Part shown: positions 283 to 9,750 of the stretch, in pieces
Position numbering within the stretch: position 1 is the stretch's first letter
Layout: every line of letters starts with the position of its first letter
Virus record (IMG/VR): IMGVR_UViG_2579778631_000016
Direction: 5' to 3' (one strand)
Length of the DNA: 9,750 nt
From: a virus
Taxonomy: Duplodnaviria > Heunggongvirae > Uroviricota > Caudoviricetes
Made by a program: the position numbers and the translations under genes
The notes under the pieces: generated by a model
The model's database searches: none
The model's input: only the letters and a program-made list of their open reading frames with translations
What the model was told of the DNA's origin: nothing

Positions 283-312
283 TGTGCCCCCATCGCTCTG
301 ATAGTCTGGTGT

Positions 313-392
313 CGTCGGGTCCTTCCTGGAATTATGGCCCGTTACGGGGCGGCGACCTCGCGCGTTTTCACTATTTATGAAAATTTTTCGGG
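313..392 (+). other. lambda-type cohesive-end site, copy A (cosQ-like + cosN)
   Basis: The + strand reads cgtcgggtccttcctggaattatggcccgttacg / GGGCGGCGACCT / cgcgcgttttcactatttatgaaaatttttcgg. The 12-mer at 347-358 and its flanks match the lambda genome left end and concatemer junction as I recall them (...cgacgggtcctttccggtgatccgacaggttacg|GGGCGGCGACCTCGCGGGTTTTCGCTATTTATGAAAATTTTCCGG) at nearly every position. Confidence 0.7.
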
Positions 393-395
393 ATC

Positions 396-494
396 CATGT
401 CCGGTTTCTCTGCAAGTTAACCATATGAAAAATATAAAAACATGCTTTCCATGAACCGGACATGCGCAAAAAACAGACACTAAAACCGGACATC
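396..494 (+). repeat. three copies of GAAACCGGACAT(G/C), one inverted; candidate cosB-type small-terminase binding sites
   Basis: catgtccggtttc at 396-408 (inverted), tgaaccggacatg at 452-464, aaaccggacatc at 483-494. Spacing is about 60 and 30 bp, close to whole helical turns, and the array sits immediately downstream of cosN copy A where lambda has the R3/R2/R1 sites of cosB. Confidence 0.4.
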
Positions 495-561
495 GAACCA
501 GTTAACCGAAAGTGTGCACAAATCACATGCATTGCTGCGAGTGATTAACAAGTTATCGGCT

Positions 562-996
562 TTACTGTTCTGTATCGGCTGATTGCTCCATGCTGGCACG
601 GCGAACGCTTACGGCATGACGCCACCCAGCCAGAAAGCCAGCCATTTTATTTCGTGCCTTGCTCACATCTTCCGGTGAATAGCCGTAAATCTGCAAACCT
701 TCATCAAATCGATGTTCTGTTTCTTCACTGGAGTACTCGTCACGCTCAGATGAAAGCAGCCTGGCAAACATAATTTTTTCCAGCGCACTGGTTTCTACGT
801 GATATCTGATGGCCTCAAGACGGCTTTTACCTGAAGACCAAAGCAATGTATGCCCGATGTGATAACCGCCAGACTTTCCGCGATCCGCATTAAGATACGG
901 CATCCCCTGTTTGGTCCATGCGCGAATAGTGGTTCTGTTAACCTTGAAATGTTCAGCTATTTCCTGCTGACTTACAAAACAAGCTTTATCAATCAT
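562..996 (-). CDS. Nu1-like terminase small subunit / packaging-specificity protein, 144 aa
   Basis: N-terminus VSQQEIAEHFKVNRTTIRAWTKQGMPYL aligns with the lambda Nu1 winged-HTH region KKQLADIFGASIRTIQNWQEQGMPVL. ATG at 994-996 has an AAGGTAA Shine-Dalgarno and lies 89 nt downstream of cosN copy B on the same strand. No terminase large subunit gene follows. Confidence 0.75.
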   Translation of the reverse strand: MIDKACFVSQQEIAEHFKVNRTTIRAWTKQGMPYLNADRGKSGGYHIGHTLLWSSGKSRLEAIRYHVETSALEKIMFARLLSSERDEYSSEETEHRFDEGLQIYGYSPEDVSKARNKMAGFLAGWRHAVSVRRASMEQSADTEQ

Positions 997-1057
997 AATG
1001 TTACCTTAACTGCATGGTTAAATATTAATCAAGTGGTGGTGGTGTCACCTTCACGGA

Positions 1058-1133
1058 AAAACGTCATAAATAGCGAAAACCCGCGAGGTCGCCGCCCCGT
1101 AACGGGTCCATATGCCGGAAAGGACCCGTAAAA
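1058..1133 (-). other. lambda-type cohesive-end site, copy B (cosQ-like + cosN + one R3-like element)
   Basis: The minus strand reads tttacgggtcctttccggcatatggacccgttacg / GGGCGGCGACCT / cgcgggttttcgctatttatgacgtttttccgtgaagg; the cohesive-end 12-mer is at 1086-1097. This matches the recalled lambda cosQ/cosN almost exactly, and ACGTTTTTCCG resembles the lambda R-site core CGTTTCC. Confidence 0.7.
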
Positions 1134-3608: not shown

Positions 3609-4031
3609 TTAAAACGGTATGTTATCCCCGTACGGATCATCATTCCCCGCCTGTTGTTTTGCCCTGTTCAGCGCGTCAGTAGCCTGCCCCTGTTGACCTT
3701 TTTTGCTGCCCGGTCGCGCCGTTCTGGCACTGATTACACTGTCTGCGATAACCTGCCAGCCCTGCCGCGTTTCGCCGTTCTGGCCTGTCCACTGGCTCAC
3801 CTGCATATTACCCGCCACGCTCAGGAGTTCGCCTTTGTGGTGTTTTGCCAGTGCGTCGGCCTGTCTGCCAAACGCCAGGACAGATAACCACATCGTCGCC
3901 GTTCCGTCATCTGCCTGGCTGCATGGCAGGGGAACCGCCATACTCGCCATCGCCATTTGTGTCCCTTTGCTGGTGGTCTTTAACTGCGGGTCAGCCACCA
4001 GCCGCCCGCAAGCCGCTATCTGTGCTGTCAT
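3609..4031 (-). CDS. ssb: single-stranded DNA-binding protein (SSB), 140 aa
   Basis: OB-fold-like core (WLSVLAFGRQADALAKHHKGELLSVAGNMQVSQWTGQNGETRQGWQVIA) and an acidic C-terminal tail ending ...DDPYGDNIPF, as in E. coli SSB (...DFDDDIPF). Start overlaps the upstream stop (ATGA). Confidence 0.8.
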   Translation of the reverse strand: MTAQIAACGRLVADPQLKTTSKGTQMAMASMAVPLPCSQADDGTATMWLSVLAFGRQADALAKHHKGELLSVAGNMQVSQWTGQNGETRQGWQVIADSVISARTARPGSKKGQQGQATDALNRAKQQAGNDDPYGDNIPF

Positions 4032-4332: not shown

Positions 4333-4560
4333 TTGTCTACCTTATCTACCTTACTGGCTCTCATGCCAGTAATGGCGCGGCTTTCAGCGGGGTAGAGTGC
4401 TTTTATCCACTATCTACCCCGTATCTACCTCCCTGTCTGATTCAGGTAAAATCAGGTAGAGAGGGTAGATAGTAGGTAGACAGTGAAAAAAGGCTGTCTA
4501 CCTAAGTTAATATACTGAATTGAATGTATTTTTCTTTACTCAGGTAGACAGGGTAGACAG
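4333..4560. repeat. iteron array (about 11 copies of GGTAGA(CAG) / (CTG)TCTACC) with an AT-rich spacer; putative replication origin
   Basis: GGTAGA at 4391, 4455, 4464, 4475, 4543, 4552 and TCTACC at 4336, 4345, 4413, 4424, 4497; the full 9-mer GGTAGACAG occurs three times. An AT-rich stretch at 4500-4540 could be an unwinding element. Lies immediately downstream of the primase/helicase gene, as in SaPI/PICI origins and P4 ori/crr. Confidence 0.7.
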
Positions 4561-4573
4561 CCATTGCAAAAAA

Positions 4574-6322
4574 TTATAAAAACGCGTCGCAATCGTCTGT
4601 TGTTATTGCGTTAGTCTGCGTTACTCCCTTAACTTTCCGCGTAATATATTCATGTCCGTAAACTTTCGCGGCTGGCTTCATAGCCTTGCCAAAGTCATTT
4701 ACGTTTAGCGGTTTGCTCCTGCCTGCGTATGCCATAAACGCCAGATAGACGCGGTAAAGGCTGTTCCTGGTCGTGTACTTCACTGAATCGCCACCGCCCC
4801 CCATCATCAGGCCGCGCGCTTCCTCCAGAAAATTCAGGAACTGGCAAAACTCAATAACCGGATCCGTTTGCTGCTTTATCGCCAGTGCTTCATCACCGTC
4901 ACGCTGTTCAATGAGTAAAGCCCGTGCCTTTTCAGGGGCGGAAAAGTTCGCCAGTAATCGGCGGATAATCACAGGGATTTCAGCCGCAATCTTTTCCGGT
5001 AGCTCCCTGTCTTTGTCGGCCTCACTGACGATATTGTCGAAACGGAAAATCACGCGACGACGTGCCACACCTCCGGCCCGTTCGGTGAATATCATCGGGT
5101 TGTTGTTGGTCGCCAGCACCACCGCCCTGATTACCGCCGTGAAACGCTTTTCATATTTCGGGTTAACTTCCACGGGGTCGCCGCCTGTGATTTTCTTGAT
5201 GCCCGTTCCTTCGCCTGTATATTTCGGCTGGTCAGCCAGGACGATAAGACGACTCCCGACAACCTGCGCACGTCCACCAGCATCATCAAGCGATGTCATT
5301 TCAGCGCTTACCGTGTTCTGTTTCCCTGCCAGAAGGCTGGCTATGTGTGTGAATGTACTTTTACCGCTCCCGCCGTCTCCGGTGGCCTCAATAAACATCT
5401 GCCAGTCGTACCGGTTCGCCATAATCATGTACAGCGCGGCACATATACGCATCATCTTGCTCGGGTCTTTTCCGGCTGCGTGCTCAAGCCATTTATGAAA
5501 GTTTGGCGCGTTATCGCGGATGTTCTCCCCGGGTGCTGGTGGCGTGTACTCAATGCCGTTGTGCGTGGTGATCCAGTTCTCCGGCGTGTGCGGGGAAAAT
5601 TCCCCCGTTTTCAGGTCAAGCGCACCATTGGCGAACGGCAGCAAATCGCCGGACGGCTCGCCCATTGGTTCGGCAATAACTTTTAACGCTTCCACGGCGT
5701 TATTGATTACGCGCTTGCTGAAAGTGGCCCTGTGCTCTGAATAGATCGCCACCATTTCGCGGCTCAGCTCCATTGTGCTGACCGGACACCATACCCCGCC
5801 GCGCCATACGTGAACGATTTCACTTTCAGGATGCACACAAACGCCATCAAAGCGCTCGGCAAGCAGCTGCGCGCGCTCACTGTCTGCCATTTGTGCCAGT
5901 TGCGTATTTTTCTGCTCCGGCATGGTAAGCCCTGCGGCAATATTTTCACGCTCAGCATTCAGATAGCGCCGCCAGTTTTCACACTTCTGGGCGTGCATTC
6001 CTTCGGGGTAAAAATTTGCGTCCTGAATATCTGCCGCCGCCAGCTTCTGACCAATCTTTTTGGTCTCCACCAAATCCAGTTCTCCGGCCTGGTACAGCCT
6101 TACGCGTTTTTTTCCATCAGGAACAATTTGCAGTGCATCAAGTTCGGCAAGCTGATTTGGCCCAAGCCACACAGGAGGCACATTATCGCCGGATGCGGGG
6201 CCGTCCTGCTCCTGCCACTGTTTTGCATGTGCCCACGCATCACTACCCGCGAAAATAATCACCTCTGTGTCTTTGTGTTTTATTCCGCGTGGCTGTTTTT
6301 TTACGTTCGGTGCCAGTTTCAT
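4574..6322 (-). CDS. P4-family primase / SF3 helicase replication initiator, 582 aa
   Basis: Walker A motif GDGGSGKST, a downstream LIVLADQP Walker B-like segment and a C-terminal region typical of phage/plasmid primase P4-family (D5_N-like) proteins. Start overlaps the stop of the upstream small ORF (ATGA). Confidence 0.9.
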   Translation of the reverse strand: MKLAPNVKKQPRGIKHKDTEVIIFAGSDAWAHAKQWQEQDGPASGDNVPPVWLGPNQLAELDALQIVPDGKKRVRLYQAGELDLVETKKIGQKLAAADIQDANFYPEGMHAQKCENWRRYLNAERENIAAGLTMPEQKNTQLAQMADSERAQLLAERFDGVCVHPESEIVHVWRGGVWCPVSTMELSREMVAIYSEHRATFSKRVINNAVEALKVIAEPMGEPSGDLLPFANGALDLKTGEFSPHTPENWITTHNGIEYTPPAPGENIRDNAPNFHKWLEHAAGKDPSKMMRICAALYMIMANRYDWQMFIEATGDGGSGKSTFTHIASLLAGKQNTVSAEMTSLDDAGGRAQVVGSRLIVLADQPKYTGEGTGIKKITGGDPVEVNPKYEKRFTAVIRAVVLATNNNPMIFTERAGGVARRRVIFRFDNIVSEADKDRELPEKIAAEIPVIIRRLLANFSAPEKARALLIEQRDGDEALAIKQQTDPVIEFCQFLNFLEEARGLMMGGGGDSVKYTTRNSLYRVYLAFMAYAGRSKPLNVNDFGKAMKPAAKVYGHEYITRKVKGVTQTNAITTDDCDAFL

Positions 6323-6623: not shown

Positions 6624-6851
6624 TTATTCTCCGGTATGGGGCGAGTTATTATTCTCGTGAATTGCCATCACTGTATTTAATTCATTAATAACAGGCGTTA
6701 ATAGCGTACGCACGGCAGAAAACATCATTGAATCAGATTCATCGCCACTTTCCGGCACATCAATTAACTTAAGTAGTAATGCGTCCATTTCCTTTGCGCG
6801 GATTAATGCGTTTTCAGAATGAACAAGAACATCAAAGGGTATTTTATGCAT
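6624..6851 (-). CDS. hypothetical protein, 75 aa
   Basis: ATG at 6849-6851 overlaps the stop of the upstream 67-aa ORF (ATGCATAA); acidic, no family recognised. Confidence 0.55.
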   Translation of the reverse strand: MHKIPFDVLVHSENALIRAKEMDALLLKLIDVPESGDESDSMMFSAVRTLLTPVINELNTVMAIHENNNSPHTGE

Positions 6852-7047
6852 GACTCACCCCCTGGCGAATACGGGCAGCGAATACCATCACGCAGCCATC
6901 AGGAGATTGCTGACGCGCTTCCTGTTCGCTGGTGGCCTCAATGGTAATCACGCGCGGTTGTGCCGTGCTCAGGGCGATAAAACGCCAGATGTATTTATTC
7001 AGGTTGTGCGAGTCCCGCCCTTTCGGGTGTGTGGTATGATTTAACAT
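6844..7047 (-). CDS. hypothetical protein, 67 aa, first gene of leftward replication operon
   Basis: Internal ATG at 7045-7047 of the long 6844..7791(-) ORF, preceded by GAGGTAG at good spacing. The remainder of the 315-aa ORF is judged spurious. Confidence 0.5.
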   Translation of the reverse strand: MLNHTTHPKGRDSHNLNKYIWRFIALSTAQPRVITIEATSEQEARQQSPDGCVMVFAARIRQGVSHA

Positions 7048-7141
7048 AGCTACCTCGATACTCTTTCTATCGTTGGTGGTTAGAAGCCCGTTGGTGTTGG
7101 TAGCACCTGCGGGCTTTGTCTTTTCATCGATTACCTCAACA

Positions 7142-7225
7142 AAGGTGTCAGCCACTATACTAGTAACAGGTGTCAGCCACGTCAATAGTGTTTTTCCATT
7201 TTCTTGTGTGTATACTGTCAGCCAC
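7142..7225 (+). promoter_or_regulatory. three direct repeats of TGTCAGCCAC in the divergent promoter region (putative operator)
   Basis: aaaggtgtcagccac (7142-7155), acaggtgtcagccac (7166-7180) and tactgtcagccac (7213-7225). TATACT hexamers at 7156-7161 and 7211-7216 abut the repeats. Located just upstream of the RHH gene start at 7247. Confidence 0.5.
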
Positions 7226-7246
7226 CTAATAACAAGGAAATCAGAT

Positions 7247-7426
7247 ATGGCAACGAAAGCAGTTAATGGAAAATCCAAAAAACTTGAGGCACGAGTCCCC
7301 CATGCAATAGCTGACGCTGTAGAAAATTTAAAGGAAGAAGGCGAAAGCACTGGGCAATTTATCGTTTCGGCACTTGAAGGCGAGATCAAACGCCGCCAGC
7401 GCCGCAAGGCCAAAGAACCAGAGTAA
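7247..7426 (+). CDS. ribbon-helix-helix (Arc/CopG-like) DNA-binding protein, 59 aa
   Basis: ATG at 7247 with an AAGGAAA Shine-Dalgarno. KKLEARVPHAIADAVENLKEEGESTGQFIVSALEGEI fits a beta-strand / helix / loop / helix RHH pattern, and the basic tail is RRQRRKAK. The long N-terminal extension in the ORF track was rejected. Confidence 0.65.
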   Translation: MATKAVNGKSKKLEARVPHAIADAVENLKEEGESTGQFIVSALEGEIKRRQRRKAKEPE

Positions 7427-7483
7427 TCACCATCAGCGCCGTGGTGTAAGGTATTACGGCGCATTGCTATGCAGGACAACACA

Positions 7484-7657
7484 ATGACCGATAAAGAATT
7501 GACCAAAACATTATCACCGGCACGGAAAAGACGGCGCAGAAAGATAGAGCATGAATCAGAAAGATTCGCGCCATGTGCTTTTGCCCTTGAGCAATTCCTT
7601 AAAGAGTACAGGGAAAAGCGCTCATTGCAGGTATGGCAACGAACTGAACCAGACTGA
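7484..7657 (+). CDS. hypothetical small basic protein, about 57 aa
   Basis: Second ATG (7484) has an AGGA Shine-Dalgarno whereas the first (7469) does not. Contains ARKRRRRK. Followed by a terminator. Start is uncertain. Confidence 0.4.
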   Translation: MTDKELTKTLSPARKRRRRKIEHESERFAPCAFALEQFLKEYREKRSLQVWQRTEPD

Positions 7658-7752
7658 TTGCATTGCCCACCAGCCTGATAGCGGCTATCATCCCCGTGCT
7701 TATGTTTGGGATCATATACACATAAGGCGCAGCGGGTTAATTGTTCAGAAAG

Positions 7753-7779
7753 GCGGCTCCATATCGGGGCCGCTTTTTT
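7753..7779 (+). terminator. rho-independent terminator
   Basis: gcggctcc-atatc-ggggccgc followed by TTTTTT (7774-7779); lies between the convergent RHH operon and alpA. Confidence 0.55.
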
Positions 7780-7805
7780 CGTGTTTGTCATATCTGTGAT
7801 ACCCG

Positions 7806-8508: not shown

Positions 8509-9750
8509 CTACACGGCTCGGATACCCCTTTTACCACTGGCGAGGGTTACGCCCGTCGCCGCAGCCTCGACAAATTCGCCCCACCAGCGCATCAGCACGA
8601 TGCGTTTTTCTATGTAGTTGCTCCGGTTGTATGCCCGTCTAACTTCGTTGGTGTCGACGTGGGCAAGTGCCGCCTCTATTACGTCCGGCTCGAATCCTTC
8701 CTCGTTCGCTGCTGTGCTGAATATGGCGCGTAATCCATGAGACACCAGCACGCCAGCGAATCCCATACGCCGCAATGCTGCGTTAGCTGTCTGGCTGTTC
8801 ATCGGCTGCTGTGGGTCTTTCAGACTTGGGAAAACGTAATTGCGGTGGTGGCTGATTGGTTTCATGGCCTCCAGCACCGCCATAGCCTGACCGGAAAGCG
8901 GGATAACGTGATCCCTGCGCATCTTCATGCGTCCGGCAGGTATCGTCCATTGCTTCGCGTCCAGGTTGATTTCATCCCACCGCGTTGATGACGCTTCGGC
9001 GGGACGGGTTACGGTCAGTAACTGCCATTCAATCAGTAATCTGGTCTGCCGTTCTGTTGCCGATACTGATAAAGCCTGCATAAGCTCCGGCAGCTGTTCG
9101 GGGCGGATTGTTGGCATATGTTTTTTTACAGGTGAGGGAAACGCCTTACGCACATTCATAGCCGGATTGGCATCAATCAGCCCACTGTTGGCGGCGTAAT
9201 CCATTACCTCATTAACGCGCTGTAAAACCCGCTTGAGTGTTTCCAGGTTGCCGCGCTCCTTGATGGGGGTAAGCACTTCAACGAACCTTCGGGCGGTGAG
9301 GGTATCTATTGGCGTGTTGCCGATGAACGGGAATACATATTTATCCAGCGAACGCCAGATGTCTTTAATCGTGTTGGGGGCCAGATTCTGGCTGATTTTC
9401 ACCTGGTACCATGCCGCCGCCACATTTTCGAACGTGTTCCCTTGTCTTCGGGCCTCTGTCTCTCTTTTTTGCCTCTCGTGGTCCTGCGGGTCAGTTCCGG
9501 CACTGATTAACGTCCTGTACTCGCTACGGCGTTTTCTGGCATCAGCCAGGGAAACATCTTCAAGCGATCCAAAACTCAGCAATATTCTTTTTTTGTCCGA
9601 TGGTCGGTAGTAGGAAAATCTCCAGAGTTTTGATCCAGACGGTTTGACCAGGAGAAAAAGCCCTCCGCCGTCCTGCAGGGTGTACTCCTTTTGCGCTGGT
9701 CTGGCTGCTTTGATCTGCACTGTGGTTAATGGGTGTGTTTTTCTCGCCAT
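8509..9750 (-). CDS. int: tyrosine integrase, P4 / CP4-57 IntA type, 413 aa
   Basis: N-terminus MARKTHPLTTVQIKAARP...GGGLFLLVKPSGSKLWRFSYYRP is typical of P4-like integrases. The C-terminal catalytic region has HGLRAIFST and AYNRSNYIEKR, the tyrosine motif. ATG sits at the window edge (9748-9750). Confidence 0.95.
   Translation of the reverse strand: MARKTHPLTTVQIKAARPAQKEYTLQDGGGLFLLVKPSGSKLWRFSYYRPSDKKRILLSFGSLEDVSLADARKRRSEYRTLISAGTDPQDHERQKRETEARRQGNTFENVAAAWYQVKISQNLAPNTIKDIWRSLDKYVFPFIGNTPIDTLTARRFVEVLTPIKERGNLETLKRVLQRVNEVMDYAANSGLIDANPAMNVRKAFPSPVKKHMPTIRPEQLPELMQALSVSATERQTRLLIEWQLLTVTRPAEASSTRWDEINLDAKQWTIPAGRMKMRRDHVIPLSGQAMAVLEAMKPISHHRNYVFPSLKDPQQPMNSQTANAALRRMGFAGVLVSHGLRAIFSTAANEEGFEPDVIEAALAHVDTNEVRRAYNRSNYIEKRIVLMRWWGEFVEAAATGVTLASGKRGIRAV

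Follow-up and report, generated by a model that had tools for sequence, protein, structure and literature searches.

The window, as we call the whole 9,750 bp stretch of DNA analysed here, is a phage satellite of about 10 kb in which every gene lies on the minus strand. Pfam matches identify an integrase (8509-9750, -), a D5-type primase (4574-6322, -), a lambda E-like major capsid protein (1932-2987, -; E=1e-49) and a lambda D-like decoration protein (1585-1920, -; E=6e-18), and an SSB gene is found at 3609-4031 (-). The gene rppA (562..996, -) encodes a 144 aa redirecting-phage-packaging protein that matches RppC in the PDB (6hlk, E=5e-31) and, over residues 7-46, the profile phrog_57; its N-terminus is that of the printed RppA (Fig S1 of PMC6739421). 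The window thus holds the features of an EcCICFT073-type island, namely int, a D5-type primase, rpp and two convergent lambda-type cos sites within ~10 kb, in the gene order of the CFT073 island, and positions 385-505 are 100% identical to CFT073 1388150-1388270. On sequence grounds, the window is an EcCICFT073-type cos PICI. Work later than 2018 has found capsid genes to be common in Gram-negative PICIs and unneeded for transfer. In 2018, EcCICFT073 was described as having no capsid morphogenesis genes (PMC6092414).

Elsewhere in the island, GGTAGACAG repeats of either orientation are clustered at 4464-4560, directly downstream of the primase gene, and are probably the island's ori iterons. 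The sequence GTGGCTGACA occurs three times within 80 bp (7146-7225, -), inside a 315 aa ORF (6844-7791) for which the Pfam search returned no match.

The two lambda-type cos sites, each with the GGGCGGCGACCT cohesive end, flank rppA, converge on each other and form an inverted repeat of 78 nt with 82% complementarity. Copy A comprises a cosQ-like flank left of the nick (GGGTCCTTCC...GTTACG; 311..346, +), which forms one arm of that inverted repeat, the cosN itself (GGGCGGCGACCT; 347..358, +), identical to lambda bp 1-12 with position 347 as base 1, and a cosN-to-R3 spacer (359..394, +) that corresponds to lambda bp 13-48 when aligned with lambda and with the TerS169 phages described below. This copy is the published 'EcCICFT073 cos2', whose printed sequence corresponds to window 314-530. 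The cosN of copy B, the reverse complement of GGGCGGCGACCT, lies at 1086..1097 (-) and belongs to the published 'EcCICFT073 cos1', which runs into the start of rppA; both sites are identical to the published sequences (Fig S1A of PMC6739421). The gene rppA turns its 5′ end towards cos1 and its 3′ end towards cos2.

Directly to the right of the cos2 cosN, there are three exact copies of the 10-mer AACCGGACAT (397-406, -; 454-463, +; 484-493, +), and allowing one mismatch we found no further copy elsewhere in the 9,750 bp window. An earlier note on this DNA had reported three repeats, one of them inverted, and these are real: across 3000 random windows generated with a first-order Markov model, no 10-mer came up three times in a stretch of 120 bp. 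Oriented alike, the copies read GAAACCGGACATGG, TGAACCGGACATGC and AAAACCGGACATCG, and their strictly common core is 10 nt; the 12-13-mer GAAACCGGACAT(G/C) proposed in that note is inexact in some copies, while its 10-nt core is exact in all three. Across relatives, the core is reduced to (A/G)CCGGACAT.

Counted from base 1 of the cohesive end, the cores occupy bp 51-60, 108-117 and 138-147, and the centre-to-centre distances of 57 and 30 bp are close to the ~60 and ~30 bp first estimated. The R3-equivalent repeat (R3′, CCATGTCCGGTTTC; 395..408, -) and the R2-equivalent repeat (R2′, TGAACCGGACATGC; 452..465, +) form an inverted pair of the R3/R2 type, and the third repeat (AAACCGGACATC; 482..494, +) has the same orientation as the second. 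In lambda, computed likewise from the nick, the R cores are R3 53-59, R2 114-120 and R1 155-161, and terS starts at 191. The statement that the triplet sits exactly at lambda's R3/R2/R1 places therefore holds for R3 and approximately for R2, but the third copy is off the R1 position and is oriented like R2, whereas lambda R1 is oriented like R3.

Between R3′ and R2′ lies an A/T-rich spacer with A-tracts (409..451, no strand), at the position of the lambda IHF site I1; it is partly conserved and may be a bend or an IHF site. A scan with the IHF consensus WATCAANNNNTTR found no good match in this spacer, only 2-mismatch matches at bp 72-90, against a 1-mismatch match at bp 79-91 for lambda I1 on the same scan. 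The motif GTTAAC(C) recurs at 415-421 in the spacer, at 501-507 in the PICI-specific DNA after the third repeat, and at ~940-1030 in the cos1 cosB and the start of rppA, which could be chance or a site for a common protein.

The same block proved to be widespread outside satellites. A BLAST search with window 385-505 gave 1910 matching places, spread over 1185 of 5426 complete E. coli genomes, and the cosN plus the triplet block is also carried, at 98% identity, by five isolated phages, namely PhiR12_1 (PV340549), which grows on K-12 and E. coli C, and its relatives; a literature search on 'PhiR12' returned nothing relevant. Nearly all matches break off exactly where the third repeat ends (window 493, query position 109). 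In every phage or prophage copy inspected (RM13322, PhiR12_1, EDL933, clone D i2, THO-008, U1, F3113 and CFT073), the block lies ~49 bp upstream of a gene for an identical 169 aa TerS (WP_000235436.1), followed by TerL, W and portal genes, and it occupies the lambda cos position between the lysis and head genes. The block is present in each of the 78 IMG/VR contigs that encode WP_000235436.1 and for which the fetched stretch reaches upstream of the gene. We refer to this class as TerS169. Its phages thus show the layout of a lambda-like cosB: the array adjoins cosN, the first R element falls within ~50-65 bp of the nick, and a co-varying terS, starting at bp 196 from the nick, follows directly. 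In the window itself, no terS follows the array. The phage copies also contain an inverted half-site, ATGACCGGTT (bp 146-155), which overlaps the third repeat and is missing from the PICI copy.

Among 23 unique cos regions, 3 of 30 core columns vary compared with 24 of 69 non-core columns (Fisher p=0.013); R3′ is invariant, and the variation is concentrated just before R2′ and in the R2′-R1′ spacer. As the compared sequences are closely related, this footprint lends modest support to the repeats being the recognized elements. In the O157:H7 prophage of F3113 (L012) and in a second contig (L090), a 30-bp deletion fuses repeats 2 and 3, leaving R3′ and one hybrid repeat; the F3113 TerL gene is frameshifted as well.

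The triplet is very probably the cosB of the TerS169 class. Of the earlier proposal of a satellite cos with altered specificity, what stands is a non-lambda cosB-type array beside a lambda-type cosN in a packaging-redirecting satellite. The array is not specific to satellites, however, being the cosB of a common lambdoid phage family.

TerS169 matches the Pfam profile Phage_Nu1 over residues 49-150 only, whereas its match to phrog_57 spans the whole protein; residues 7-46 of RppA fall on the same N-terminal positions of the latter profile. With the isolated N-terminal 65 aa, Pfam gave no HTH match, so that phrog_57 alone ties this part to the Nu1/Rpp N-terminal region, and a PDB sequence search with TerS169 gave nothing meaningful. 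The matches fit a homologous but divergent DNA-binding domain of the winged-HTH type, and we infer that TerS169 binds the triplet.

A natural domain swap bears on this pairing. A genome contig search with TerS169 returned four loci, including a TerS chimera in an E. albertii prophage (L008, 1201-1935). Compared with TerS169 (L001, 4007-4708), the chimera is unalignable before about residue 26, aligns weakly to about residue 67 and is nearly identical from there on (71% over residues 26-169). In its cosB, the CCGGACAT repeats are replaced by GGTTGTTGT at bp 48, ACAACAACC at bp 110 and GGTTGTTGT at bp 188, in the lambda pattern of orientations. A different N-terminal DNA-binding domain thus goes with a different R motif, GGTTGTTG instead of CCGGACAT. 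Such pairs, with the same TerS C-terminus and another DNA-binding domain and R motif, could be used in studies of DNA recognition by terminases.

The earlier note had named the adjacent Nu1-like protein, RppA, as the obvious candidate binder of the repeats. The distribution of the triplet speaks against this. RppA- or RppB-type proteins are encoded by 26 IMG/VR loci; in 20 of these, an RppA-type gene is intact and the two cos sites fall within range. Across these 20, the first 60 residues of RppA are essentially identical and the cos1 cosB (...GTGACACCACCACCACTTGATTAA...) is constant, while the cos2 cassette is of the CCGGACAT type in 11 (the window included) and of the GGTTGTTG type in 9. In the GGTTGTTG islands, the cassette holds all three repeats and stops ~12 nt after R1. 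Three RppB-type islands (L114-L116) have another cosN class in both copies, but their cos1 retains CACCACCACCAC and their cos2 holds a GGTTGTTG cassette. The triplet is therefore not co-inherited with rpp, and it lies 3′ of rpp, not between cosN and the rpp start. Absence of the repeats from homologous elements that still package had been named as a result that would count against the proposal; as far as sequence goes, 9 of 20 islands with a near-identical RppA N-terminus lack them.

Published genetics point the same way. Deletion of cos1 reduced lambda- and phi80-mediated transfer of EcCICFT073, deletion of cos2 raised lambda-mediated transfer and left phi80-mediated transfer unharmed, and deletion of both abolished transfer (PMC6092414); because it took the deletion of both sites to abolish transfer, cos2 can be cut. 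RppA boosts the transfer of cos1 plasmids, cosB-swap chimeras show RppA-dependent transfer only with the cos1 cosB (the swapped segment begins, by its primers, at CGTGAAGGTGACACC, bp 44 onward), and a phi80 chimera with the cos1 cosB becomes RppA-dependent (PMC6739421). On cos2 plasmids, the effect of RppA was weakly significant (p=0.04), and the text gives no direction (PMC6739421). The cos2 cosB thus confers no RppA-dependent packaging in the published chimeras (PMC6739421), and cos2 is dispensable (PMC6092414). The roles first assigned to the two copies have to be exchanged, since it is cos1, copy B, that is required and RppA-responsive. The 'lambda-like R3' formerly seen in copy B, ACGTTTTTCCG at 1054-1064, corresponds to bp 34-44 and aligns with the lambda cosN-R3 spacer AAAATTTTCCG; the Rpp site proposed for this copy is instead the CACCACCACCAC element at bp 48-65 of cos1, the R3-PICI of Murialdo & Feiss (2022; AGGTGACACCACCACCAC, window 1033-1050, -; PMC9026076).

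The CACCACCACCAC element does track rpp. It is kept at bp 48-65 of cos1 in every Rpp locus (L094-L118), including a 59.8-kb contig whose Rpp is 71% identical (L117) and the RppB islands with their different cosN, which fits the R3-PICI proposal.

Several related islands show rearrangement around the cos sites. Two that have no intact rpp (B771, L010 2420-3040; and L119) carry one CCGGACAT and one GGTTGTTG cassette, their inter-cos segment is inverted relative to the window, and rpp is cut down to a 3′ fragment; these flips are evidence of recombination or inversion between the convergent cos sites. An inter-cos inversion was also considered as the reason why the repeats lie 3′ of rpp, and was rejected because a flip leaves the relation between R sites and gene unchanged. 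The cosN variant GGGCGTCGACCT is present in both cos copies of L010 and of L113, and in a TerS169 contig (L025), with GGGCGACGACCT in the others, and cosN variation is also seen at cos2 of L096 and L098 and in L117; the two cosN copies of one island seem to change together. In sister PICIs (EH41, L002 4040-4800; Nissle 1917; ATCC 25922), a 180 aa Nu1-family TerS replaces rpp. The EH41 island, the only sister whose sequence was inspected, has a third, lambda-style cosB with the R core CAGATCC (GTCAGATCCGTTCTTC / AAAGGATCTGAC / ATCAGATCCTTTCTC) at the cos2 position, and at the cos1 position GGTGGTGGTGG, the inverse of the CACCACCACCAC of the Rpp islands.

Island and phage copies of the block occur together. 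At least two copies were found in 44 of the 60 best PICI-type records, compared with about 22% of genomes carrying any, these counts being uncorrected for clonality. CFT073 itself has a potC prophage (L123, 1339000-1356000) with TerS169 and a cosB of the class found in cos2 of the island, its R3 perfect and its R2 and R1 with one mismatch each; an IS200 adjoins the antiterminator gene of this prophage. In CFT073, deletion of phage 4 abolished island transfer and deletion of the other prophages changed nothing (PMC6092414). As the phage 4 deletion alone matters, island transfer in this strain neither requires the resident TerS169 prophage nor can be sustained by it, and this prophage may be defective or may fail to induce the island.

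Four other accounts of the triplet have to be weighed. That it is the satellite's own altered cosB, read by RppA alone or by an RppA-TerS heterodimer to redirect packaging, would suit the Nu1-like wHTH domain of a protein whose gene adjoins the repeats, the R-site positions that the repeats fill and the weakly significant effect of RppA on cos2 plasmids. Yet cos2 is dispensable, the RppA dependence of the chimeras comes from the cos1 cosB, the block is found letter for letter in phages that lack rpp and encode a TerS themselves, it is missing from 9 of 20 loci with an identical RppA DNA-binding domain, and the repeats face the 3′ end of rppA, not its 5′ end. The cassette split and the published genetics largely refute RppA as the reader for lambda and phi80, and we regard this account as very improbable. 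Least probable of all is that the repeats are operators or promoter elements of the 93 aa gene that starts at 282 (-): they do fall within the 279-bp intergenic region upstream of it, but the phage copies precede another gene, terS, on the other strand, and the inversion in B771 detaches the block from the 93 aa gene.

A third possibility is that cos2 serves prophage 4, the island's natural helper in CFT073. This phage-21-like prophage has R cores, CATGTCGG / CCGACATG, that resemble CATGTCCGG / CCGGACATG and are set apart from the triplet core by a single added base (Fig S5 of PMC6092414). The cos1 and cos2 deletions were assayed with lambda and phi80 only (PMC6092414), which leaves room for a role with phage 4. 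Against this, a 1-bp insertion within a wHTH recognition core normally destroys recognition, the exact block goes with TerS169, not with the 21-type TerS (WP_000867568), and an interaction between Rpp and the phage 4 TerS-21 has been reported (PMC9026076), so that cos1 already serves this phage; the account is improbable. A relic, that is, a recombination scar of exchange with a TerS169 phage at the common cosN, with no selected function, deserves more weight and is nevertheless unlikely. The 98% identity to PhiR12-type phages suggests recent exchange, cos2 cassettes differ among near-identical islands, the inversions and rpp truncations of B771 and L119 indicate frequent cos-cos recombination, and loss of cos2 is harmless to lambda- and phi80-mediated transfer. 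Against a relic, both cassette classes retain the full R3-R2-R1 set and stop just after R1, none of the three cores shows a mismatch in the PICI copies although certain prophage copies are degenerate, and the two-cos layout persists across RppA and RppB islands and through a change of cosN class. Transfer is abolished only by the double cos deletion, which shows that cos2 is still cuttable.

We consider it likely that the triplet is a native TerS169-class cosB, carried in cos2 for Rpp-independent packaging by TerS169-type helpers; that it serves productive packaging of the island by this route is somewhat better than an even bet. In the proposed mechanism, TerS169 would bind the inverted R3/R2 pair across the A/T-rich, probably bent, spacer and position TerL on the adjoining cosN, so that the DNA is nicked and packaged towards the terS side. 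The island encodes no TerS169. Its cos2 would be a copy of this cosB that stops precisely behind the third repeat, and it converges on rppA opposite the Rpp-dependent cos1. A TerS169-type helper could then initiate on cos2 as on its own DNA, without Rpp, and cos1 with RppA would hijack the Nu1-type TerS of lambda, phi80 and the 21-like phage 4. A cos2 that is non-cognate for lambda and phi80 is in keeping with the low activity of this site and with the rise in transfer once it is deleted.

The likely use of such a site to the island follows from the reach of Rpp. Single substitutions in residues 3-70 of lambda TerS (V3I, Y50N, A55V and E65K) escape Rpp, and HK97, which has an unrelated TerS, is insensitive to it. 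TerS169 differs from lambda TerS throughout residues 1-65; because it differs across the escape region, and given the insensitivity of HK97, Rpp probably cannot hijack TerS169, and a native cosB would then be useful to the island. More tentatively, with a chance that we put slightly below even, Rpp-type PICIs in general may be two-channel elements, in which cos1 and Rpp address helpers with a Nu1-type TerS, and a swappable cos2 cassette supplies the native cosB of whichever Rpp-resistant TerS class circulates locally (CCGGACAT or GGTTGTTG), traded with phages at the common cosN.

The authors who described EcCICFT073 found no phage cosB in the island and left open the question 'why two cos sites?' (Fillol-Salom et al. 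2018, 2019; PMC6092414, PMC6739421). Reading cos2 as an intact native cosB suggests an answer and makes the question directly testable. About one in five complete E. coli genomes, those of O157:H7 and CFT073 among them, contain the TerS169 class. The reading also predicts a wider helper range for these virulence-associated islands. In the searchable literature, outside which paywalled papers lie, we found no report that the cos2 cosB is that of a phage TerS class, of the CCGGACAT and GGTTGTTG R motifs or of cos2 cassette polymorphism, nor any discussion of the cos2 cosB beyond the two Penades papers (PMC6092414, PMC6739421). No new kind of mechanism is revealed: cos2 itself is published, and the carriage of a helper cos by a satellite is a known strategy.

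Among known systems, the closest in architecture is the lambda cosB (R3-I1-R2-R1, bound by gpNu1). The two are alike in the identical adjoining cosN, a first repeat at bp 51-60, an inverted second repeat ~57-61 bp away across an A/T-rich spacer, a terS that in TerS169 phages begins ~195 bp from the nick, and the Nu1-family C-terminal part of TerS. They differ in the core (CGTTTCC in lambda, CCGGACAT in the TerS169 class), in the third repeat, which in the TerS169 class follows the second at 30 bp with unchanged orientation and, in the phage copies, overlaps an inverted half-site, in the weak IHF consensus, in an N-terminal TerS domain that has no match to the Pfam Nu1 profile, and in that no terS follows cos2 in the window. 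Phage 21 has a cosB of similar overall layout, and its R core CATGTCGG resembles CATGTCCGG, but with one extra core base and another TerS DNA-binding domain.

The published EcCICFT073 cos2 has the same sequence as the array of the window, and cloning, deletion and swap experiments on it have been published (Fillol-Salom et al. 2018, 2019); unlike in those papers, its cosB is assigned here to a third TerS class, present also in a CFT073 prophage. The Rpp-dependent cos1 with its R3-PICI shares with cos2 the island, the cosN and an element at the R3 position, but consists of a single CACCACCACCAC without repeats, 5′ of rpp and tracking rpp, whereas the triplet, on the 3′ side of rpp, is made up of three repeats and varies independently of that gene. 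Lastly, P4 with its helper P2, SaPIbov5 and HE-PICI 11capE are likewise satellites without terS that carry a helper-type cos including its specificity part, HE-PICI 11capE having 258 bp of cos in common with its helper (PMC10111431). In contrast to these, an EcCICFT073-type island adds a second, redirecting cos/Rpp system aimed at other helpers.
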